The notes: generated by a model from the sequence alone, not told the origin. A stretch of 64,000 nt of DNA from a phage (PX393110.1); one strand, 5' to 3'. Counted from the stretch's first letter, positions 4,526-50,243 are shown. Made by a program: numbers and translations.

Positions 4526-4825
4526 TCACCATGGCCATGGTAGTTTATTTTCGGGCTCCTGCCTATAGTAGGAGCATTTGATACCCAACGATTCCACAAT
4601 ACTTACAGGAATCTTATCAGTTACTTCAGAGTCTTGATAGATTGGTCCGAATACTGATACGTTTGGATCTTGCAACAGTTCAGATATTAATCCAGCCTCT
4701 TCATAAGTCTCGAAGAATGCTGCGGTGGTATCTGGATTACAGCCGAGACCGGTCCATGAGGTGTAAAACTCGTTTACTCCACAGAGAGCACCGTGCTCCT
4801 TATGCACCACTAAAAATCCCAGCAT
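4526..4825 (-). CDS. hypothetical protein
   Basis: ORF track. The start overlaps the RNase H gene end, so the exact start is uncertain. Confidence 0.45.
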   Translation of the reverse strand: MLGFLVVHKEHGALCGVNEFYTSWTGLGCNPDTTAAFFETYEEAGLISELLQDPNVSVFGPIYQDSEVTDKIPVSIVESLGIKCSYYRQEPENKLPWPW

Positions 4826-5330
4826 CTGTGTATCCTTTAAGTTTATTTCTATACTTAACCATTTCCTGCTTAGCTATCTCATCACAGAGATTATTTACTT
4901 TGTAGCGAGGATTATTGAACTTCTGATGACCTTTGACATGCTTAACCTTAATGGACTTAGGGTTAAGATCGCGAAGCATTTCCATATGCTTATCTATGAA
5001 TTCCTTTAATGCCCATTCGCAATCGCATTGGACGACTACCCTAACACCATCGAATGCTGTCTTAGTCATGGCAAACCATAGGGTCTTCATGATCCCTTCT
5101 AGCTCTGCCCAGTTATTATCTACAGCAGTAAATCCTCCGCGAGTTATATGAGCTCGCTGCTCACCAGGAAGACGAATCCATCCTCCGAAACCAGCAGCCT
5201 TACTCTTATGACAGTACGATGCATCTGAGAAGATTGTTATATAGCCCGCAGGGTCCAGACCGCGTTCGGGAGTACCCTCGAAGTGGATAACTCTACCAAC
5301 ATCTTTCTCACCGATAGCATGTTTCTTCAT
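4800..5330 (-). CDS. RNase H (type 1)
   Basis: The DEDD pattern aligns with E. coli RNase HI: FSDAS (FTDGS), AELEGI (MELMAA), QCDCEW (STDSQY), VKGH...NNLCDEIAK (VKGH..NERCDELAR). Confidence 0.75.
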   Translation of the reverse strand: MKKHAIGEKDVGRVIHFEGTPERGLDPAGYITIFSDASYCHKSKAAGFGGWIRLPGEQRAHITRGGFTAVDNNWAELEGIMKTLWFAMTKTAFDGVRVVVQCDCEWALKEFIDKHMEMLRDLNPKSIKVKHVKGHQKFNNPRYKVNNLCDEIAKQEMVKYRNKLKGYTDAGIFSGA

Positions 5331-7968: not shown

Positions 7969-8075
7969 AGTATTAGCTCCAAATTAGATTATCCAGTGAA
8001 GCGCTACCGCGCCCCACCCAAAAGAACGGGCTTTATGAGCTCCCAAAAATCGGTTATTTGAAAAATAAATTTCAA
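7969..8075 (-). promoter_or_regulatory. class-2 cassette b
   Basis: Core 8008..8040 TAAAGCCCGTTCTTTTGGGTGGGGCGCG, then hairpin GCGC-GGTA-GCGC, TAATTTGGAGCTAATACT and the ATG. AT-rich inverted repeat upstream. Confidence 0.55.
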
Positions 8076-11465: not shown

Positions 11466-11523
11466 TCGGCGGGGAACGCCCCGCGCCCAAGTTAACGGGC
11501 TGCAGAGCGCTCCAGACTTCGTT
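11466..11523 (-). promoter_or_regulatory. class-2 cassette c (degenerate)
   Basis: Core 11477..11508 AGCCCGTTAACTTGGGCGCGGGGCG, then hairpin GCGGGG-CGTT-CCCCGC. AAAAATAAAACGA upstream. Confidence 0.4.
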
Positions 11524-11817: not shown

Positions 11818-11941
11818 AATTAGCTCCAAATTATAACGAACCGTGAAGCGGCCAACCCGCCCCACCCAAAAGAACGGGCTTTAGGACCTCTCAGAGTTCG
11901 TTTTATTTTTCAAAAACATTTCAATAATGAAAAATATTTTT
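11818..11941 (-). promoter_or_regulatory. class-2 cassette d
   Basis: Core 11857..11887 TAAAGCCCGTTCTTTTGGGTGGGGCGG, then hairpin GCGG-GTTGG-CCGC and TAATTTGGAGCTAATT. 12-bp AT inverted repeat ATTTTTCAAAAA/TTTTTGAAAAAT upstream. Confidence 0.55.
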
Positions 11942-14234: not shown

Positions 14235-14263
14235 AGGGGAGCTACCCTTTTCGCCCAAACACT

Positions 14264-14294
14264 TTAACAGCCTTTCGAGTCATCAAAAGAGCGG
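14264..14294 (-). promoter_or_regulatory. class-1 motif copy 1
   Basis: CCGCTCTTTTGATGACTCGAAAGGCTGTTAA, 79 nt before ATG 14184 and 2 nt after the upstream stop. Confidence 0.6.
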
Positions 14295-17844: not shown

Positions 17845-17898
17845 AAAAATAAACCTCCGCCAATTTAACAGCCTTTTAGGCCGCTAAAAAGGCGGAGG
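17845..17898 (-). terminator. hairpin enclosing class-1 copy 2, followed by U-run
   Basis: CCTCCGCC...GGCGGAGG followed by TTTATTTTT, just before the polymerase RBS. Confidence 0.35.
17865..17895 (-). promoter_or_regulatory. class-1 motif copy 2
   Basis: CCGCCTTTTTAGCGGCCTAAAAGGCTGTTAA, 30 nt before the polymerase ATG 17834. Flanked by the 8-bp inverted repeat CCTCCGCC/GGCGGAGG. Confidence 0.6.
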
Positions 17899-19541: not shown

Positions 19542-20497
19542 ATTAAGTTCTCTCTTCTGTCTAATACGGACTGGATGAACTCATCAGTACCATTCTGCAG
19601 TTTCCGTATTAGTAATTCCTCAGGATCCTCACCATCGCTGTAGACTACTCGCAGTTGACGAATACTCTTCACCTTCTGTCTTACGCTATTGCGCAGTTCA
19701 AAAGATAAATCCGTACTGTCAAGAAATATCTGACCTTCTTCCGGGAAGAACTGACTCATCATCCTGGCCTGGGTATCGGTGAGGAAAGATCCCTGGACAG
19801 CTAATGGGTTATCGTAGCCTAACAGCAACATTGCGAAAGCATCAAACATACCCTCGCATAAGCTGAACTTAGTCATACCTCCGTATAGACTAGTCTTCAG
19901 AGCACGATTCGGACTATAGATATACTTATCCCCAGGAGGAATATGGTATTTCCTTTTACCTATCGGCTCGTACAGACGCATCGTATAAGATATGATCTTA
20001 CCCTTAAAATACATCGGAGCTGCCACACCTACTCCCTTAAGTTCGCGGATCTGGAAATAATCTTCCATACCCTGTAGGAGCGGGTTGCGGTTAGCCAAAT
20101 ACTCTTTACAGAAATCAGAAGGAGGATCAAACATCCTCTCATACTGAATCTCTGGCACCGAAGATAAACTCCGGACTACCTGCTTATCAGAATGAGCTAT
20201 CCACCCACGGATAGTTAGCTCTAATTCTAACTCTTCCTTACTCTTATTCGAGAAAGGTATGAACTTACAATGGCAACGATGGCATATTCCAGTCTGCTTA
20301 TTGTAGTTCCAGTAAAATGTCCACTTAGAGTTCGGTTCCCCCATAAGTTCACAGGTGGGACACAGTCGGAGCTCCTCCCCCTTATGTTCGTTAGCTATCT
20401 GGACATTACCAGGATACTTATCTGCTTCGAACATGTAAACTCTGGGAGTAACCCTAACCAAGTATTCATTTATACGAGTTAGAGACTCAATTTCCAT
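19505..20497 (-). CDS. DNA primase (Zn ribbon + TOPRIM)
   Basis: CPTCELMG...CHRCHCKF zinc ribbon. TOPRIM-like SLCEGMFDAF and FLDSTD. Confidence 0.65.
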   Translation of the reverse strand: MEIESLTRINEYLVRVTPRVYMFEADKYPGNVQIANEHKGEELRLCPTCELMGEPNSKWTFYWNYNKQTGICHRCHCKFIPFSNKSKEELELELTIRGWIAHSDKQVVRSLSSVPEIQYERMFDPPSDFCKEYLANRNPLLQGMEDYFQIRELKGVGVAAPMYFKGKIISYTMRLYEPIGKRKYHIPPGDKYIYSPNRALKTSLYGGMTKFSLCEGMFDAFAMLLLGYDNPLAVQGSFLTDTQARMMSQFFPEEGQIFLDSTDLSFELRNSVRQKVKSIRQLRVVYSDGEDPEELLIRKLQNGTDEFIQSVLDRRENLICNMMSKESSIA

Positions 20498-43820: not shown

Positions 43821-44339
43821 TTACTCCTCTTTACTCTGGTAAAGTAACTGGACATCTGCCGCATTCTCGACATATTCCTGAGCTATACGAATAGCCCTAA
43901 CGACCATAGCCTTCTCTCCCCAGCTTAAGAACTCAGGAGTAGCGGCCATCTTAACGATCAACTCACGAGACAGATCTTCGATACACTTAATCTTGTTCGA
44001 GACCTTAGGAAACGCGAGTCTGTTATTGATGGTGATACGATCAGCAGGAATCTGGGTGAAGGTCTCGCCGAACAGTCTATCGAAATCTCCGATGTCGAGT
44101 TCAGTGAAGTAACCCTTACCTTCTTCCGTATCAAATATCCCATGAACTACTACGTTCTGTCGGATAGACACATTTAGTAAGTACTTAGAGTTCAGTAAGA
44201 TAACGTAGATACTCGAATAGCTTCGGAGATCACGTTTCCATGCTGATAACGACTCAGTAGGTGAGCCTTTGTATTCTACTCCCGAATTAAGAAGCATCTT
44301 AGCAAATGGGTCTAGGCTGTTAATTACTACAGTACTCAT
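43821..44339 (-). CDS. hypothetical protein
   Basis: ORF track 43821..44360. The ATG at 44339 has an AAGGAG RBS, 24 nt after a class-1 motif. Confidence 0.5.
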   Translation of the reverse strand: MSTVVINSLDPFAKMLLNSGVEYKGSPTESLSAWKRDLRSYSSIYVILLNSKYLLNVSIRQNVVVHGIFDTEEGKGYFTELDIGDFDRLFGETFTQIPADRITINNRLAFPKVSNKIKCIEDLSRELIVKMAATPEFLSWGEKAMVVRAIRIAQEYVENAADVQLLYQSKEE

Positions 44340-44363
44340 TGTATTCTCCTTGGGTGCCACAGT

Positions 44364-44394
44364 TTAACAGCCTTTCGACGCTAATTAAAGGTGG
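44364..44394 (-). promoter_or_regulatory. class-1 motif copy 11 (variant)
   Basis: CCACCTTTAATTAGCGTCGAAAGGCTGTTAA, 24 nt before ATG 44339. The upstream stop lies inside the motif. Confidence 0.5.
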
Positions 44395-44696
44395 TCTTTA
44401 ACAGTTCCCAGAATATTATCTCTGGTATGGATTACGCCACTACGATTGGCTTCAATACGTGTGGTAGCTACTATTTCAAATACTTCTAATTGGATAGTAG
44501 GATGAATCATGCAAGTACGGATCAACATAGACAGAGCATCTTCGTAGCTCTGATAACCAGTCGCGTTCTTGTGATTATCCTGCCAAAGTCTATCTGTCGC
44601 CTGAGCTCGCTCCGAGATGTAAGAGATCTTACCATCTTTCATCTGACCAACACAATACTTAGCTTCAGAACTATCTGAAATATGTAACGTTTCCAT
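44385..44696 (-). CDS. hypothetical protein
   Basis: ORF track. AGGAG RBS. Its stop lies inside a class-1 motif. Confidence 0.5.
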   Translation of the reverse strand: METLHISDSSEAKYCVGQMKDGKISYISERAQATDRLWQDNHKNATGYQSYEDALSMLIRTCMIHPTIQLEVFEIVATTRIEANRSGVIHTRDNILGTVKDHL

Positions 44697-44739
44697 AATT
44701 TCTCCTAATGGGGAGTTTTACCTCCCCTGAGTAAACATA

Positions 44740-44988
44740 TTAGAATGGGCGGTGACGAGATTCCGTTACCTGAAGACCTTCGAAGATCTTACCAACGAAG
44801 TCAAAGCTTACACCATCTTCTACCGATGTAATCTTGACACTATTGGTATCATCGATCTTCTGACCAGTCGCCAGGAGGCCGTTGGGGAGGACTACGCCTA
44901 CGAATTCACGAGTATCAGGTGGTCTACGGAAGTGTTTCTTCCCAGCAGGTTTCTTGTGTCTCGAGAACGGATTATTATTATAAGGCAT
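44740..44988 (-). CDS. hypothetical protein
   Basis: ORF track. GAGGAG RBS. Confidence 0.5.
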   Translation of the reverse strand: MPYNNNPFSRHKKPAGKKHFRRPPDTREFVGVVLPNGLLATGQKIDDTNSVKITSVEDGVSFDFVGKIFEGLQVTESRHRPF

Positions 44989-45349
44989 TGTCTAGCTCCT
45001 CTTTTATAGTATGATCTTTGTACATTCTTAAACTATACGGGTTCTCTATCTCTTCGAATTGAAGACCATCGAATCCATGTATCATGTTAGCGAATCGCAT
45101 ATTATACATGGTAATCCTGATCTGCCAAATCATAGAATTAGAGGCTTTACGGAATACTTTACACGGCTCACTAACTACAGCACCCTGGATCTTCTTTAGC
45201 TCGTTAACGATGTTCGACACATCTTCAAGTTCGCAATATGACTGAAAGATCCGTGATGGACATCGTCTTATTTGACTAACGTCTGAACCATACATAATTT
45301 TTACACAACGAGTAGATTGAACACAGAAGGACGTTGGATACGCCTCCAC
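44978..45349 (-). CDS. hypothetical protein (start uncertain)
   Basis: ORF track. A GTG start lies 4 nt after a class-1 motif. The alternative ATG at 45295 lacks a clear RBS. Confidence 0.35.
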   Translation of the reverse strand: MEAYPTSFCVQSTRCVKIMYGSDVSQIRRCPSRIFQSYCELEDVSNIVNELKKIQGAVVSEPCKVFRKASNSMIWQIRITMYNMRFANMIHGFDGLQFEEIENPYSLRMYKDHTIKEELDNAL

Positions 45350-45353
45350 CGCT

Positions 45354-45384
45354 TTAACAGCCTTTTAGGTCATTAAAACGGCGG
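45354..45384 (-). promoter_or_regulatory. class-1 motif copy 12
   Basis: CCGCCGTTTTAATGACCTAAAAGGCTGTTAA, 8 nt after the GT32 stop. Confidence 0.55.
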
Positions 45385-45392
45385 AGTTCAGA

Positions 45393-46184
45393 TCAATACC
45401 GTGGGTCGGTATCCTGATAATCGCGAATCAAGTCATAGACGAGCACATCCAGACGAGTAGCATCTTCACGCTTCATGCGGGTAGGTCTGTACATATGAAT
45501 ACATACACAGTGCTTAGACCATACCTTAGCAGTCTGACGTTCCGTAAGTTCTTTACGGTCGACGATGTACTTCTCGAATGCGTGATAAGAGATAGGCTTT
45601 GATACTTCGATATATTGGCACATATCGAGGAATTGCGGGTAGTCGTCAGTCAGGTAACGACTGAATACATCCTGGTAATAGGAGTAGTTAGGGAACTTAC
45701 CACCATTTTCCAGAGATAAAGCATGAGTCTCTATCTCCTTCAGCATCAGAGACATGAATGCCTGATTATTGCTGGGGGAGGTCCACATGTTGATTTCGCA
45801 GTAGTCTAACCGAGGGGAATAAACGCGTACCTGAGTCTCGTGAGGAGTGTAGGTTTCGTGAGGGCTTCGGATAAAGAGTGTATCAGCATCAACATAGGAG
45901 TAACCACGAAGATCCATCATTACCTGAATCTTGAGTCGCAGGTAATCACATACAGAGGCCATCTTAGCCTTAGTCTTCAGGATATTATACGCTTTCTCCA
46001 TGATAGGATCTCTGGCGAATAAATCCTGGATCATAATGCATCGGCACCCTTCGATAATGTTTTCAGTATTATCGATCACCAGCACATGGTCCTTAGGTCC
46101 ATATTTCTGTAAGGATTTAATGCATTCCCGAACATGGATAGGCATCTTTGGTCCTACCCAAAGCTGGAAATAATTCTGACTCAT
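45393..46184 (-). CDS. GT32-like (DXD, Gly_transf_sug-type) glycosyltransferase
   Basis: QLWVGPKMP..., MASVCDYLRLKIQVMMDLRGYSYVDADTLF (family pattern SD..R...L...GG.Y.D.D). GAGGT RBS. Confidence 0.55.
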   Translation of the reverse strand: MSQNYFQLWVGPKMPIHVRECIKSLQKYGPKDHVLVIDNTENIIEGCRCIMIQDLFARDPIMEKAYNILKTKAKMASVCDYLRLKIQVMMDLRGYSYVDADTLFIRSPHETYTPHETQVRVYSPRLDYCEINMWTSPSNNQAFMSLMLKEIETHALSLENGGKFPNYSYYQDVFSRYLTDDYPQFLDMCQYIEVSKPISYHAFEKYIVDRKELTERQTAKVWSKHCVCIHMYRPTRMKREDATRLDVLVYDLIRDYQDTDPRY

Positions 46185-46818
46185 AGTTACCTCTATGTTA
46201 TTTATTTTAAACTGGATAGGGACCTAATAGAGTAAATTAGTAAATAAATACTTATTAGTTACCTCTTACCTATGCTAAGGGAAGCGTACTCGAGGAGTAC
46301 AGAGGCTTAGCGAAAGAGCGGAGTAACACCTTTATCCCAATTAGTCAAAGTAGAGAGCGAAGGAGTCGCGCCCGCTTGAGGCGGCGCGACCTCCGCTTCA
46401 CCAATCCTACCGGATGAGCGCCTGCGACCACCCGAGCCTACCCCTGCATCACTCTCTAAAGCCACTTCGGGCTTTACCTCGTTCTGCTACGCGATACGCA
46501 GGCGATAGCTACACTAAGTCCCCTGGAGATGGCTAGTAAGCATCCGCTACCAGTCATATCCAACCTAACATTGGCGAAGCCAGGGACTAGGCACTCCGCG
46601 CCAATAAGCTACATTAGGATTTATGTCCGTATTCGAAGATAGGCCGATCGGTGAGACTATGCATTCATCTCTGCTCAACCAGGAAGCGCCGATTAGGGTA
46701 AATACCCAAACTACCTTCTTAATGTCACTCCTCCCAGACCGCTTCGGGACTTAGCTTAAGTCATATCCGAATAATCTGGCATCTACGACGGACCGTAGTG
46801 TATGGAGCGTACTGCAAT
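46185..46818 (-). other. 634-nt ORF-free, highly structured leader / candidate large ncRNA
   Basis: No ORF of 60 aa or more on either strand. A class-1 motif sits at its 5' end. Contains many GC-rich helices (details in findings). Confidence 0.35.
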
Positions 46819-46848
46819 TTAACAGCCTTTCGATTCATCAAAAGAGCG
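46819..46848 (-). promoter_or_regulatory. class-1 motif copy 13
   Basis: CGCTCTTTTGATGAATCGAAAGGCTGTTAA. It points into about 630 nt of ORF-free sequence before ATG 46184. Confidence 0.55.
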
Positions 46849-46982
46849 TAATTAGGGACCCGATTATTCCACTTAGCTGCCATCCGTTCGGGTCAACACA
46901 GATCGTTCCAGGTCTTAGGCATCATACCAGACCGTTTCAGTACACTCGGATTATTAGTTCCCGGTGACCATTTAAAGATGGT

Positions 46983-47055
46983 GGCCCATACTGGTTTCGA
47001 ACCAGTGACCAATCGATTATGAGTCGACTGCTCTCACCACTGAGCTAATGGGCCG
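46983..47055 (-). tRNA. tRNA with CAU anticodon (Met elongator or Ile2/lysidine type)
   Basis: Hand-folded cloverleaf: acceptor GGCCCAT/ATGGGCC, D arm GCTC..GAGC, anticodon arm GTCGA-CTCATAA-TCGAT, T arm ACTGG-TTCGAAA-CCAGT, discriminator A. CCA is not encoded. Confidence 0.85.
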
Positions 47056-47199
47056 AACTGGTCGGGACCGTGGCCCACACTAGAGGATTTGCCAAACTCC
47101 CCATTATCATGGCCTAAGCCATCCAGACAGCCGTGACTACCCTGCTCCGGTACATGTGATAATGGGGACGTATCCAAAAATGTGGAGATCCCGTTAAGG
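47056..47199 (-). other. 144-nt structured inter-tRNA spacer
   Basis: 11-bp stem CCCCATTATCA (47100-10) / TGATAATGGGG (47158-68) enclosing the hairpin ATGGC-CTAA-GCCAT. No T-loop, so it is not a tRNA. Confidence 0.4.
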
Positions 47200-47276
47200 T
47201 GGTACTCCCTACAGGATTCGAACCTGTGACCAATAGCTTAGAAGGCTACTGCTCTATCCAGCTGAGCTAAGGGAGC
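47200..47276 (-). tRNA. tRNA-Arg (UCU)
   Basis: Hand-folded cloverleaf: acceptor GCTCCCT/AGGGAGT, D arm GCTC..GAGC, anticodon arm GTAGC-CTTCTAA-GCTAT, T arm ACAGG-TTCGAAT-CCTGT, encoded CCA. Confidence 0.85.
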
Positions 47277-47457
47277 TTATTAATTCTTCTACCTGCTTAA
47301 CAGATTTATTCATGCCTGTTCCGTGACACTCCCCGCAGACCCAAGTCCGACAGAAGATATCACCAGGCTCAGCATCGTCACACTCTCCTAAACCTCCACA
47401 TTCTGGACATTTAGCTTCATTAACAATACTTCTTAGCTTATGAAAAGTAGTTTCCAT
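47254..47457 (-). CDS. DnaJ-type zinc-finger mini-protein
   Basis: Two CxxCxGxG repeats (CPECGGLG, CGECHGTG) plus CRTWVC. GGAGG RBS. The last 23 nt overlap the 5' part of tRNA-Arg. Confidence 0.55.
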   Translation of the reverse strand: METTFHKLRSIVNEAKCPECGGLGECDDAEPGDIFCRTWVCGECHGTGMNKSVKQVEELISSLSSAG

Positions 47458-47473
47458 AAATCCTCCATTTTAG

Positions 47474-47541
47474 GATGACCTCTTAGCTTACCATCGCGAA
47501 AAGCTACATGGAGTGTAGTTAACGTGAACTAAGAGGTCATC
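47474..47541 (-). repeat. 13-bp perfect inverted repeat between two small genes
   Basis: GATGACCTCTTAG (47474-86) / CTAAGAGGTCATC (47529-41), with the inner hairpin CTACA-TGGAG-TGTAG. It ends 5 nt before the GGAGG RBS of ORF 47254..47457. Confidence 0.5.
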
Positions 47542-47547
47542 ATAAAA

Positions 47548-47649
47548 TCAGCTATTGAAAGCTAATATAATACTGTCCCAACCATCTACATAAATTGCGT
47601 TGGCTACATATAATACGAAGAATATAGCAACGACTATTGGATTAATCAT
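47548..47649 (-). CDS. 33-aa single-pass membrane peptide
   Basis: Internal ATG of ORF 47548..47757 with an AGGAG RBS: MINPIVVAIFFVLYVANAIYVDGWDSIILAFNS (hydrophobic helix). Confidence 0.4.
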   Translation of the reverse strand: MINPIVVAIFFVLYVANAIYVDGWDSIILAFNS

Positions 47650-47989
47650 CGTACTCTCCTGAGAAATATTATCCTGCTTACTGTTACAGGGACGCCGTTC
47701 GTCGCGCCAGATTACCAATCGGCGATTAAGCCGATCTCGCCAACCGCGTAACGCCATTGGCTGGTATCACATAGGCTTGTAGCCCTCAGTCAACCTGTCC
47801 TGAGGAGGTAGGAAGAGCCATACGCCAAATCCGGGATTGATAGTCCCATATAGCTTCCTACTTTGCCATTCTCGTATGGCCTCGGATACGACTGTCTCTG
47901 GGTAAGGAGTCCCGACAGCTGATACGGTTTAGTTTATTTTTAATTTGAGTCCCACTCATACCTTACAGACTCAAGCACTGCAGACCACC
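47650..47989 (-). other. ORF-free structured region upstream of the membrane-peptide gene
   Basis: Long-range 8-bp stem GCCATACG/CGTATGGC (47817-24 / 47873-80). Hairpins ATCGGC/GCCGAT, CCTCAG/CTGAGG and CTGTC/GACAG. Confidence 0.3.
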
Positions 47990-48019
47990 GAAAAACCGAC
48001 TGGTACGCTAGCAGTCGGT
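47990..48019 (-). terminator. intrinsic terminator about 30 nt downstream of class-1 copy 14
   Basis: ACCGACUG-CUAGCGUAC-CAGUCGGU followed by UUUUCGG. Confidence 0.55.
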
Positions 48020-48046
48020 CCCACGGATCCCATGAACAACTTATGA
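47990..48046 (-). ncRNA. candidate ~55-nt small RNA (class-1 motif to terminator)
   Basis: Bounded by class-1 copy 14 and the terminator at 47990..48019. The only ORF inside is 20 codons with no RBS. Confidence 0.25.
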
Positions 48047-48050
48047 CAAT

Positions 48051-48080
48051 TTAACAGCCTTTCGAGTCATCAAAAGAGTG
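48051..48080 (-). promoter_or_regulatory. class-1 motif copy 14
   Basis: CACTCTTTTGATGACTCGAAAGGCTGTTAA, followed about 30 nt later by a hairpin plus U-run. Confidence 0.55.
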
Positions 48081-48232
48081 TTAAGTTGCCCGCTCCCTAT
48101 CACCGAGCACTGTGATGATGGGAAATAGGGAGCGAAACGATTCCTAAGTTTTATCTTCTTCTCTAAGTGATTAACCGTTACATACGATATACCTTCTTAG
48201 TTAGATAAGCCGGAATTGGCACTTCGAACACT

Positions 48233-48263
48233 TTAACAGCCTTTCGACCGTACAAAAGAGCGG
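48233..48263 (-). promoter_or_regulatory. class-1 motif copy 15
   Basis: CCGCTCTTTTGTACGGTCGAAAGGCTGTTAA. In tandem with copy 16, 58 nt apart. Confidence 0.55.
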
Positions 48264-48268
48264 CGTAA

Positions 48269-48811
48269 TTAGACGCTCGCCTCAGACACTTTAACAGCCT
48301 TTGGAACTGTAAAAAGAGCGGGTTTATACCATTCGGGAGTGCGGTAGAAAGTAATGGTACGACCCTCTTTCTCCCAGATATAGTATTTATCGTTCAGGTA
48401 GTTACGATACTTCTCGTAAACTGTTTCGCCAGGAGCACCTGCCACACACGCATAAGGTGTCATGTCAGTCTCCGGACCGACCTTCAAGTTCTTAGGCAGT
48501 TTGCTGAGTCGCGACAGAATAATATCTGTGGCATGCATACGACCGGTACGTTCATAGAACAGGATACACAGATAGTTAGCCAGCTCTTTAACGAAGTTGT
48601 AGTTACCGGAAGATTCACGGACCCAGCGTGCTGATGGGTGATTTACGTGAGTCTGTTTGTAAATACCCTCGATAGCTTGATCGCCATCCAGAACATGATG
48701 AGCTGTGGACAACAGCTGAGCACATTCGATAATCATTTTATTCTGGTGCATTGGCATACAATGGTCCATAGCACATTCTAACGCATCTTCGTGAGTACGG
48801 AAAATATTCAC
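48269..48811 (-). CDS. hypothetical protein, possibly pyrimidine-dimer DNA glycosylase (DenV/Pyr_excise)-like
   Basis: GTG start with AGGAG RBS. The pattern K..IEC.QLL...H.......YK.TH.NHPS.RW and C-terminal PEWYK loosely recall the DenV-related family. The last 12 codons are a class-1 motif. Confidence 0.35.
   Translation of the reverse strand: MNIFRTHEDALECAMDHCMPMHQNKMIIECAQLLSTAHHVLDGDQAIEGIYKQTHVNHPSARWVRESSGNYNFVKELANYLCILFYERTGRMHATDIILSRLSKLPKNLKVGPETDMTPYACVAGAPGETVYEKYRNYLNDKYYIWEKEGRTITFYRTPEWYKPALFTVPKAVKVSEASV
48291..48321 (-). promoter_or_regulatory. class-1 motif copy 16
   Basis: CCGCTCTTTTTACAGTTCCAAAGGCTGTTAA. It lies inside the last codons of ORF 48269..48811. Confidence 0.5.
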
Positions 48812-48897
48812 TATAATTACTCCTAACGTGGTTTGCTTACTTTAAGTCTCTCGTAAAAGATTTAGAGTAAGCATCGGAGGTAACCACCTCCGACACT

Positions 48898-48928
48898 TTA
48901 ACAGCCTTTCGACGGTACAAAAGAGCGG
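48898..48928 (-). promoter_or_regulatory. class-1 motif copy 17
   Basis: CCGCTCTTTTGTACCGTCGAAAGGCTGTTAA, 86 nt before GTG 48811. Immediately followed by the hairpin TCGGAGG/CCTCCGA. Confidence 0.6.
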
Positions 48929-48930
48929 TT

Positions 48931-49086
48931 TTAAATCTTACATGCGTCCCCGCAGTCGTCGTCACCAGGCTGGCTGATAACTTCGTCTACGTTAACCATG
49001 CGATCTTCGACACGCTTAGATGCTTCGTCGAGTTCTTCCTGAGAAGGAATATTATTGAAGTCCAACTCTTCAGCAGATTTGCTCAT
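48931..49086 (-). CDS. small acidic hypothetical protein (51 aa)
   Basis: Internal ATG of ORF 48931..49299 with GAGGAA RBS (MSKSAEELDF...). It follows the upstream stop at 49094. Confidence 0.4.
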   Translation of the reverse strand: MSKSAEELDFNNIPSQEELDEASKRVEDRMVNVDEVISQPGDDDCGDACKI

Positions 49087-49093
49087 AGTTTCC

Positions 49094-49414
49094 TCATAAG
49101 AACATTTTGACAAGATGTTTAGTACCGTTGATAGCAGCTTTCTTAGCAGCCGACTTAACATGAGCTTTAACTTTCTTATGTAAAGTCTTGGACTTAGCCT
49201 TATTTTTAAGGAGTCGTCCGGCAGCTTTAGCCCTACGCTTGATTCTGTTAGCTGATTCGGAAATAGCAATACCTTCCTCATCAGTAACATCATCAACATT
49301 AGACGAAGCTATCATCAGTAACTGATCATCGGTTAAACCAGCTGCTATGGTTTTGACGAATATTCCTTCATCGACATCACCAACAGCATTAAGGAGATCC
49401 TGTGATTTTGACAT
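49094..49414 (-). CDS. hypothetical protein with Lys-rich C-terminus
   Basis: ORF track 49094..49429, ATG at 49414. Confidence 0.45.
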   Translation of the reverse strand: MSKSQDLLNAVGDVDEGIFVKTIAAGLTDDQLLMIASSNVDDVTDEEGIAISESANRIKRRAKAAGRLLKNKAKSKTLHKKVKAHVKSAAKKAAINGTKHLVKMFL

Positions 49415-49883
49415 AATCTTCCCATACATTAATTACTTCCTTACCCAGAGATTTAGCATGGGTTACACAGTTACCTGTACCACCCTTGCTGCCATCCCAT
49501 AAGGCTAATCCCTTCTGACTACGGTTAACCATGTAACGGTTACGCACCATCATCTTGAAAGAATCATACCCAGGCTCGGAAACTATAATTGTGCGACGAC
49601 TTCTCCTGCAGAGCTCAGTCCATTTTTCTACATCTGCAGATCGCCACATCTTGGGCTGGTCAATCATAGGGACTGCTGCGAAATATGGTATTCCGAGGTT
49701 AGCACATGCTTGAGCACATGCCATGTCCCATCCTAAAGCCATACCCACGAACCAGCAGTCGACCTTATTTTCTTCGGTCAACCTCTGGATATGATGTTCG
49801 GCAAACTGGGTAAGCTGATCATGGCTAAAGATATCCCAGCCACCCAGTTTATCTGGCCTATGACCAGTGACGAACATAAACAT
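49389..49883 (-). CDS. SLOG-superfamily protein (YpsA/DUF1273-like)
   Basis: FVTGHRPDKLGG..., VDCWFVGMALGWDMACAQA..., GLALWDGSKGGTGN parallel B. subtilis YpsA (VTGYKPFELG, WILISGQLGVELWAAEA, LLLLYDPEKEGSP). Confidence 0.5.
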   Translation of the reverse strand: MFMFVTGHRPDKLGGWDIFSHDQLTQFAEHHIQRLTEENKVDCWFVGMALGWDMACAQACANLGIPYFAAVPMIDQPKMWRSADVEKWTELCRRSRRTIIVSEPGYDSFKMMVRNRYMVNRSQKGLALWDGSKGGTGNCVTHAKSLGKEVINVWEDYVKITGSP

Positions 49884-50224
49884 TACTTCTTCTCTATCTT
49901 GGCCTGCTTAGCCTTAACTAAAGCCAATGCGTTAGCCAGTTTAGCAGAAGTATCCTGCGGACCATCTTCTTCGAGCTGTTTCTTCAGGGACTCCATACGA
50001 TCGGTAGTCCCTTTAGTATCCATCTCGATTAATTCGTTGATGGTCGACCCGCCGACGTTAGGTAACTTGCCGAGTTGCGACAAATCCTTAACTTCGGGGA
50101 TCTTAACGTGAAGTTGAATAGACTGGGATGCTCTCGCGAATGACCCAGCACGACGATTGTCTCCTACCTTATTATATAGGGAAGATAGGTTACCCAGGAA
50201 CGTAATGATATCAGCAGTTTTCAT
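49883..50224 (-). CDS. helix-hairpin-helix protein resembling the Pol X 8-kDa (dRP-lyase) domain
   Basis: ATG at 50224 with GGAGG RBS. IITFLGNLSSLY...RRAGSFARASQSI...LGKLPNVGGSTINELIE..TKGT parallels the Pol beta N-terminus (ITDMLTELANFE...NAYRKAASVI...[20 protein letters not shown]). Confidence 0.45.
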   Translation of the reverse strand: MKTADIITFLGNLSSLYNKVGDNRRAGSFARASQSIQLHVKIPEVKDLSQLGKLPNVGGSTINELIEMDTKGTTDRMESLKKQLEEDGPQDTSAKLANALALVKAKQAKIEKK

Positions 50225-50243
50225 ATTTGATTCCTCCAACGGT

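Follow-up and report, generated by a model that had tools for sequence, protein, structure and literature searches.

GOLLD and ROOL are striking large RNAs of unsettled function, found mostly in hosts or metagenomes that are awkward to study. Both are reported to occur frequently close to tRNA islands, a Met-tRNA gene preceding GOLLD env-38 (PMC12286853). Here we describe a non-coding element beside two tRNA genes in a 64,000-nt stretch of phage DNA (PX393110.1; hereafter the window, in whose positions all coordinates are given). The window comes from a virulent Escherichia coli phage, and the element and its neighbours are read on the minus strand, from a promoter-like motif near tRNA-Met towards a GT32-like gene. 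A preliminary description of this DNA had pointed to a region without open reading frames (ORFs) at 46185-46982, and had proposed a long structured leader or a large non-coding RNA. Judged by sequence comparison, positions 46356-46848 (minus strand) are a selectively constrained, non-coding module of about 470 nt that is new to databases, restricted to one small phage clade and probably an RNA with local structure. The reading we favour, with slightly less than even confidence, is a discrete RNA module whose primary role would be that of a trans-acting structured RNA. As proposed, it would comprise a promoter-like motif, about 460 nt of constrained non-coding RNA with local helices and then a long GC-rich hairpin, with the following parts:

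46815..46848, minus strand: class-1 promoter-like motif CGCTCTTTTGATGAATCGAAAGGCTGTTAAATTG, 34 nt, a small hairpin (CUUUUGA-UGAA-UCGAAAG) followed by GCTGTTAAA
46356..46814, minus strand: conserved non-coding core, about 460 nt, most constrained over 46474-46814
46571..46604, minus strand: best-supported core helix, UUGGCG.../...CGCCAA with an inner GCC/GGC hairpin
46416..46429, minus strand: hypervariable hairpin loop with an invariant closing stem CGGGU/AUCCG (46430-46434 / 46411-46415)
46356..46397, minus strand: terminal GC-rich hairpin, 14-bp core GGAGGUCGCGCCGCC-UCAA-GCGGGCGCGACUCC extended by AAGCGGAGG/CCUUCGCU

We found ten copies of the module in three lineages of one small clade of E. 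coli phages, gathered through the 90%-identity cluster of the GT32-like protein (nine members) and through a DenV-like protein (two further contigs). They come from the window, the phages IME392 and EP_H11, and the contigs L020, L009 (= L010), L015, L021, L011 (= L012), L013 and L016, and give a core alignment of 487 columns with nine distinct sequences. Nucleotide diversity (pi) per 40-nt window is 0.007-0.05 in the core, against 0.13-0.19 upstream and 0.06-0.16 downstream. The low-diversity block begins exactly at the motif, holds these core values as far as 46474, is somewhat higher beyond, and gives way to rising diversity past the terminal hairpin. The loop at 46416-46429 exists in three versions in the three lineages (pi 0.34; 0.19 for its 40-nt window). 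In all deep pairwise comparisons, core divergence is 2-8 times below that of both flanks and of third codon positions in the GT32-like gene. Between the window and the others it amounts to 0.037-0.051, against 0.19-0.235 at those third positions, 0.09-0.16 in the post-hairpin spacer and 0.18-0.25 in the upstream spacer; between the IME392 and EP_H11 groups the values are 0.019-0.037 for the core, 0.06-0.13 for third positions and 0.16-0.17 for the post-hairpin spacer. No other segment is as little diverged in any of the deep comparisons, and the same three lineages can still be told apart in the core; the alignments thus indicate that the nucleotide sequence of the core is under purifying selection, roughly at the level of first codon positions. 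The ratio of core to third-position divergence varies from 0.05 to 0.66 among pairs, which points to recombination nearby.

The ORF-free region is as first described: neither strand of 46185-46982 holds an ORF of at least 60 aa, the longest being 52 aa. Together with the tRNAs it forms the longest ORF-free stretch of the window (46185-47253, 1069 nt), of which 93.4% lies under some ORF of at least 60 aa. Because 22% of shuffles of the 798 nt are likewise without such an ORF, the gap indicates non-coding sequence, not function. A conserved small ORF within the core was ruled out by three 1-nt indels between lineages and by an in-frame stop that interrupts the longest ORF in one lineage. The GC content of the core is 56-58%, against about 43% around it.

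Local pairing is a further line of evidence. On the ten sequences RNAalifold drew 153 pairs with 99.4% of cells paired. Twelve of the pairs switch between G-U and Watson-Crick forms and four have substitutions in both partners, counts that are biased toward a structure drawn from the same alignment. The covariation score of 0.050 was reached by none of 500 shuffles (slid controls gave 0.006-0.022), and variable columns make up 6% of paired vs 21% of unpaired positions. In the helix at 46571-46604, the pair 46601/46574 is G-C in two sequences, G-U in four and A-U in four, the sole clean compensatory pair of the core; two more of its pairs switch between G-C and G-U, and one is broken in the window's copy alone. 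At 46597 and 46553-46554 this copy carries lineage-specific changes that disrupt predicted pairs, namely C-U for A-U (columns 234/255 of alignment A2) and A-C for G-C (columns 278/301; common to L020), and it has single-base deletions as well; L020, its nearest relative, is without some of these changes. The helices that had been picked out by eye (46362-46394, 46286-46300, 46459-46476, and 46564-71/46611-18 around 46571-76/46599-604) are present and are used in the minimum-free-energy (MFE) and RNAalifold folds. All bases of the possible pseudoknot between 46580-88 and 46517-26 are invariant, and the folds place 46517-26 in a 12-bp long-range helix. The minus-strand fold reaches -164 kcal/mol vs -140 for the plus strand, and variable pairs are kept or broken in a proportion of 11/6 on the minus and 7/9 on the plus strand, which favours the minus strand only moderately. 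Fold stability, the neighbouring genes, the tRNAs, the orientation of all 19 promoter-like motifs and the pairing of a hairpin in the tRNA-Met trailer (both below) support the minus strand as the RNA strand.

The class-1 motif, originally placed at 46819..46848, is real, being one of three near-identical 32-nt copies (14260-14291, 46815-46846 and 48047-48078; 31-32 of 32 positions identical). Its 3' half, AAAGGCTGTTAAA, occurs 19 times in the window against a chance expectation of 0.15, each time on the minus strand. These copies span the minus-strand block 3654-50255 (e.g. 17862-17876, 44361-44375, 48230-48244 and 48288-48302), with none in the plus-strand structural block. Thirteen precede the start codon of the following called gene by 10-85 nt, and the other six lie farther upstream or within the 3' end of a gene. 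A small hairpin stands directly 5' of GCTGTTAAA in each motif copy, and Acinetobacter phage Ab1-TPeters has a hairpin and the related motif CAAAAGCTGTTTAAAGT at the same kind of site (L005 ~16840, 17580, 18255 and 19510). The hairpin and AAAGGCTGTTAAA together are probably an early/middle promoter of this phage group, and we treat the class-1 motif as a putative promoter, possibly with an added stem-loop role. The copies at 46815-46846 and 48047-48078 are direct repeats flanking the tRNA segment, and the copy at 14260-14291 sits at a junction where IME392 DNA differs; such differences in gene content suggest cassette exchange at class-1 motifs.

The 5' half of the motif, CCGCTCTTT, has nine exact copies in the window, eight of them in full motifs. 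The sole orphan, at 46313-46321 between the terminal hairpin and the GT32-like gene, would be a relic promoter, because the adjoining 3' half is degenerate. From look-alikes of the class-1 motif and of a class-2 leader in the 3' third, the preliminary description had suggested that part of the region may be degenerated cassette DNA. The sequence there does look like decayed or spacer DNA (pi 0.06-0.16, orphan half-motif), and the class-1 look-alike is good for its 5' half only. The class-2 intergenic motif, an AT-rich tract TTTTTCAAATAA..CGATTTTTG followed by CTAAAGCCCGTTCTTTTGGGTGGGGCG, occurs on the minus strand at ~2917-2960, 8027-8075, 11875-11920 and 11470-11520. The 9-mer TAAAGCCCG is all that it has in common with the core, where this recurs once (46468-46476), so that the class-2 resemblance is weak; nor is that copy decayed, since it sits in an invariant hairpin. 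A late-promoter candidate, TAATTTACT, was dropped as it has two copies only.

No described RNA family accounts for the module. At the gathering score, Rfam 15 matched only the two tRNAs in the whole window, and neither 45900-48400 nor 46180-46985 at E<=10 gave a match to GOLLD, ROOL, HEARO, raiA, an intron, RNase P, tmRNA, 6S or a riboswitch; on these last 806 nt the matches were at chance level (CC1840 sRNA, 20.5 bits, E=3; Acido-Lenti-1, 14.1 bits, E=1.9). The suggested link to GOLLD (whose model has a conserved 3' domain with a pseudoknotted core), ROOL, HEARO, raiA or introns was therefore not borne out. Neither ARAGORN nor Rfam called a tRNA beyond the two, and ARAGORN no tmRNA, which led us to reject a tRNA-derived sequence; a CsrB-like GGA sponge was rejected with about 11 GGA by hand count, near chance expectation.

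Relatives outside the clade were likewise absent from the collections searched. With blastn, 796 nt matched only IME392 and EP_H11 among 50,697 phage records, and E. coli genomes and plasmids gave no match to the region. Exact 20-25-mers of the invariant blocks were found zero times in IMG/VR, JGI metagenomes and GTDB genomes, and scans of IMG/VR and JGI metagenomes anchored on the GT32-like protein and the helicase returned no relatives. Profiles of the region (nhmmer) found nothing in the next relatives (Ab1-TPeters and the first 50 kb of RP13) or in contigs with remote homologues of the gene, and blastn-short against the syntenic tRNA region of Ab1-TPeters gave chance 9-11-mers only. A covariance model of the best-supported 97-nt domain (R1) recovered the window alone. 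Intermediate relatives are known (helicase 79% identical, from SRR10902858, and 52% identical), and their contigs end short of the region. Within the window nothing else resembles the core, and the element has no internal repeats, DGR-like or iteron structure except the promoter motif. The expectation of conservation in related phages thus holds inside one narrow clade and fails for Ab1-TPeters and the first 50 kb of RP13. As regards the first proposal of a leader or a large non-coding RNA, what stands is a non-coding region on the transcribed strand with a promoter-like start and with purifying selection over its first ~460 nt; a link to a known family does not, and the fold is not established.

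The scheme that we propose is inferred from the sequence as regards the activity of the promoter, the position of the 3' end, the accumulation of a separate RNA and whatever function this may have. The module would be transcribed along with the early/middle minus-strand genes, from a motif of the same near-identical subclass as the one preceding the tRNA segment. The candidate RNA of about 470 nt would start a few nt past GCTGTTAAATTG and end at the terminal hairpin (~46356), whose stem is invariant and whose loop varies in sequence and length by lineage (UCAA, CUGAAG, UCCAGG). Measured against intrinsic-terminator criteria, the tail after this hairpin (UUCGCUCUCUAC) has no U-run, and a terminator scan made no call. 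Because canonical U-tract terminators do occur elsewhere in the window, the hairpin is probably not an efficient terminator, and would more likely be a 3'-end protector, a processing site or a leaky stop. Transcription would run on into the GT32-like gene, whose own promoter would have decayed to the half-motif, so that one module could serve as a stable trans-acting RNA (~470 nt) and also form the beginning of the GT32-like mRNA. In the most economical history, a cassette of promoter and RNA would have become placed upstream of the gene, whose own promoter would then have decayed because read-through supplied transcription. The two features beyond the hairpin are:

46185..46355, minus strand: variable spacer, about 170 nt, with the relic CCGCTCTTT (46313-46321), a hairpin GUACUC-CUC-GAGUAC (46286-46300), an AT-rich tract and an invariant ribosome-binding region
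45393..46184, minus strand: GT32-like gene, 263 aa, the first gene downstream, for which no separate promoter could be recognised

Motif and hairpin delimit the constrained block, and about 130 nt of drifting sequence including the dead promoter follow before the ribosome-binding region. The leaderless homologues of the gene described below, the relic half-motif and the flank-like rates of the spacer support, by comparison of sequences, a module that would be independent of the GT32-like gene.

Several observations weigh against a separate trans-acting RNA, and the first group concerns the transcript. Module and gene adjoin in all seven distinct sequences (nine contigs) that span their junction, and they share the same narrow distribution. 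The minus strand of 46185-46355, from the hairpin to the gene, has no full motif and no sigma-70-like promoter. Given a hairpin unlike canonical terminators and no visible promoter for the GT32-like gene, the simplest transcript is an mRNA of 1.45 kb whose leader measures 630 nt. The module could then act in cis, as a long 5' leader that controls read-through at the hairpin (attenuation or antitermination), or the stability or translation of the GT32-like gene, with no separate functional RNA. The lack of a U-tract agrees with this, as does the invariance of the last ~40 nt before the start codon (pi falls from 0.06-0.16 in the spacer to 0.000 across these and the start codon). A leader of 630 nt would, however, be out of scale in a phage where the other leaders are about 10-85 nt (13 of the 19 motifs directly upstream of a called gene); a drifting spacer (pi 0.06-0.16) with a relic promoter separates the core from what it would regulate; the remote homologues of the gene do without a leader; and no riboswitch, T-box or leader family matches. 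On this evidence we consider a leader alone possible and rather unlikely.

The label GT32-like (glycosyltransferase family 32) goes back to the preliminary description. The protein itself has no match in Pfam (E<=0.01), PHROG, NCBIfam or PDB sequences; it has remote homologues (23-31% identity), and it is these that show sub-threshold similarity to PF04488 (DXD sugar-binding region; 21.4 bits, cut-off 23) and PF04572 (18.1 bits, cut-off 22.3). Its AF2 model, with a pLDDT (predicted local distance difference test) of 44.8, is too poor to use. The remote homologues belong to compact operons in which start codons overlap stop codons and leaders are absent. One (L022 4571-5383) directly follows topoisomerase II genes, and another (L023 5001-5744) stands beside a short-chain dehydrogenase and a ThyX-like gene, neighbourhoods that fit a role in nucleotide or DNA modification.

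The second group of adverse observations concerns fold and divergence. Besides the bias of the RNAalifold-based counts, the core is thermodynamically no better than shuffles (z = -0.91; -2.4 for the whole 646 nt), and on both strands the substitutions of other lineages disrupt about as many pairs of single-sequence MFE folds as they preserve. With three lineages only, there are few independent substitutions. The covariation check therefore speaks for local helices and is thin overall: several local helices are supported by these models, but neither the overall fold nor the proposed pseudoknot is established. Moreover, the genomes are mosaic, with blocks of 74% to 100% identity between the window and IME392, so that low divergence could come partly from recent exchange and not from constraint.

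Carried further, the same facts would make the region decayed cassette or pseudogene DNA of little or no function, seemingly conserved through recent exchange among mosaic relatives. The block structure of identity, the wide range of the core/third-position ratio with recombination nearby, the relic half-motif, the 9-mer common to the class-2 motif and the weak z-score are all in keeping with this idea. It nevertheless appears improbable: in each deep comparison the core has diverged less than either flank and still separates the same three lineages, the low-divergence block runs exactly from motif to hairpin, variation avoids predicted stems or is G-U-compatible, and nothing similar in the window or public collections offers a parent gene. 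An element that works as DNA, for instance a replication origin primed by transcription in the manner of ColE1 RNA II or the T7/T4 primary origins (promoter, structured primer RNA, AT-rich unwinding tract), is very improbable: it would fit the layout in its anatomy alone (promoter-like motif, ~460 nt of GC-rich transcribed sequence, strong hairpin, AT-rich tract at 46200-46260) and the family-A DNA polymerase for which IME392 has an annotated gene, but there is no change of GC skew here, no repeats or iterons, the AT-rich tract is among the less conserved parts, and the element lies in an accessory island of ~5.5 kb that is missing between the flanking-gene homologues of Ab1-TPeters, which makes an essential origin unlikely.

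The remaining features of the locus are the tRNA genes and their trailer:

47200-47276, minus strand: tRNA-Arg(tct), called by ARAGORN and Rfam
46979..47054, minus strand: tRNA-Met(CAU), last gene of the tRNA segment, called by ARAGORN (Rfam tRNA, 72.2 bits)
46849-46978, minus strand: tRNA-Met trailer spacer, pi 0.13-0.19, rearranged among relatives
46882..46903, minus strand: trailer hairpin with a 6-bp stem and a conserved 10-nt loop (GUUGRCCCGA), inside the fast-evolving spacer

The trailer-hairpin stem occurs in two fully compensated versions, AUCYGU/ACGGAU and GAUCRY/GUGAUC, with several pairs changed on both sides; G-U pairs at three positions form solely in the minus-strand RNA and thus argue for RNA structure. 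In relatives, unannotated tRNA-like remnants stand between tRNA-Met and the trailer (L001 ~4690-4830, L002 ~4705-4845 and L009 ~1413-1590), either a T-arm and acceptor 3' half ending in CACCA or tRNA-like sequence not called by ARAGORN. They are absent from the window, whose junction at this point looks like a deletion between two ...CACCA 3' ends.

The window is 86-97% identical, by blocks, to Escherichia phages vB_EcoM_IME392 and EP_H11, and the annotation of IME392 lists split RNA-polymerase beta and beta' genes next to the family-A DNA polymerase. By major capsid protein, the nearest relatives are Ab1-TPeters (63% identity) and Ralstonia phage RP13 (55%), and farther ones include the thymidine-hypermodified phages YerA41, Carin-5 and SP-15. 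The minus strand carries every gene between 1 and ~50250, after which the structural genes follow on the plus strand. Along the minus strand the order is a DenV-like gene (48811-48269), three promoter-like motifs, a ~290-nt leader, two small ORFs, tRNA-Arg(UCU), a 145-nt spacer, tRNA-Met(CAU), the ORF-free stretch and the GT32-like gene (46184-45393). In Ab1-TPeters, homologues of the window genes 49883-50239 and 43821-44360 adjoin each other, which defines 44361-49883 as the accessory island. Besides the tRNAs, the RNA module and the GT32-like gene, the island contains a YpsA/SLOG-like gene, a Q-like zinc-ribbon protein, three small ORFs and the DenV-like gene, which encodes a pyrimidine-dimer glycosylase (PF03013 family). 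The content of the tRNA segment varies in every relative (1-3 tRNAs, with or without the Zn-ribbon gene, an extra 210-aa gene).

We also noted other non-coding sequence in the area. The inter-tRNA spacer 47055-47199 (minus strand, 145 nt) is kept in most relatives (85-92% identity in those that have it). Its predicted folding is favourable (z = -2.76), one pair is cleanly compensated (G-C to A-U in AUGGC-UUAG-GCCAU), and a G-run varies from 4 to ~17 G; the spacer may be a small stable RNA processed alongside the tRNAs. The second-longest ORF-free stretch is 47758-48268. Within it the ~290-nt leader 47758-48046 (minus strand), from the class-1 motif to a small membrane-like ORF, is 82-90% identical to IME392 and not unusually conserved. 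Ab1-TPeters has the same tRNA-Arg and tRNA-Met pair at a different genome location (L005 16890-20170), in a region with many annotated 30-70-aa ORFs on both strands that looks largely non-coding; it includes ~350 nt of GC-richer sequence (19790-20130) without sequence similarity to the element of the window. The same phage carries a group I intron (L006 14135-14446, record 64135-64446; Rfam 66 bits vs a gathering score of 50) in a stretch annotated solely as small hypothetical ORFs.

If the favoured reading of a trans-acting RNA is true, a ~470-nt unclassified module in cultivable E. coli phages would be an easy experimental case, in which the isolated phages IME392 and EP_H11 permit knock-outs in a genetically tractable host and could address accumulation, role, and action on tRNAs, ribosomes or host defences. 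Were it a leader, the module would stand out among regulators by its length and conservation, and its target would be a probable DNA-modification glycosyltransferase. Its present value is limited by the tiny and closely related sequence set.

Among described systems, a resemblance to leaders with riboswitches or attenuators lies in the position between a promoter-like site and a gene and in the strong hairpin at the end, which could modulate read-through; unlike these, the module has no family match, is several times the typical leader length and is followed by ~130 nt of drifting sequence before the ribosome-binding region. T4-type phages carry mobile promoter/stem-loop cassettes known as PeSL elements, and the class-1 motif likewise joins a stem-loop to a promoter-like core and occurs in near-identical copies where relatives differ in gene content; this likeness concerns the motif and not the 460-nt core. 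In phage T4 itself, species 1 and 2 (rnaC/rnaD) are stable non-tRNA RNAs of ~120-140 nt from the tRNA region, processed from the tRNA precursor. The module too would be a non-tRNA RNA next to phage tRNA genes, but it is ~470 nt long with a promoter-like motif of its own, and the closer analogue is the inter-tRNA spacer 47055-47199.

By its position the module appears analogous to the large phage RNAs beside tRNA genes, and we tentatively propose a new family of large trans-acting structured RNA in virulent E. coli phages of a rare clade, functionally comparable to GOLLD and ROOL, whose expression would be driven by the strong promoter subclass that also serves the phage tRNAs. Like these two it is phage-encoded, non-coding, several hundred nt long, located beside tRNA genes and GC-rich relative to the genome. 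The module starts 130 nt past tRNA-Met, and the resemblance is one of position and not a criterion of membership. Some of its loops carry palindromic tetranucleotides (CC-GAUC-GG; AGCU in GACUUA-AGC-UAAGUC) like the kissing loops of GOLLD and ROOL, RNAs that assemble into homo-oligomeric nanocages, a likeness compatible with chance. The module differs from them in being shorter, in matching their Rfam models in neither sequence nor structure, and in having immediately downstream a gene that probably relies on the promoter of the module; since it is known from ten near-identical copies only, it has no ornate, covariation-supported structure as they do. Its host is E. coli, whereas GOLLD and ROOL belong to Lactobacillales, rumen or marine taxa.

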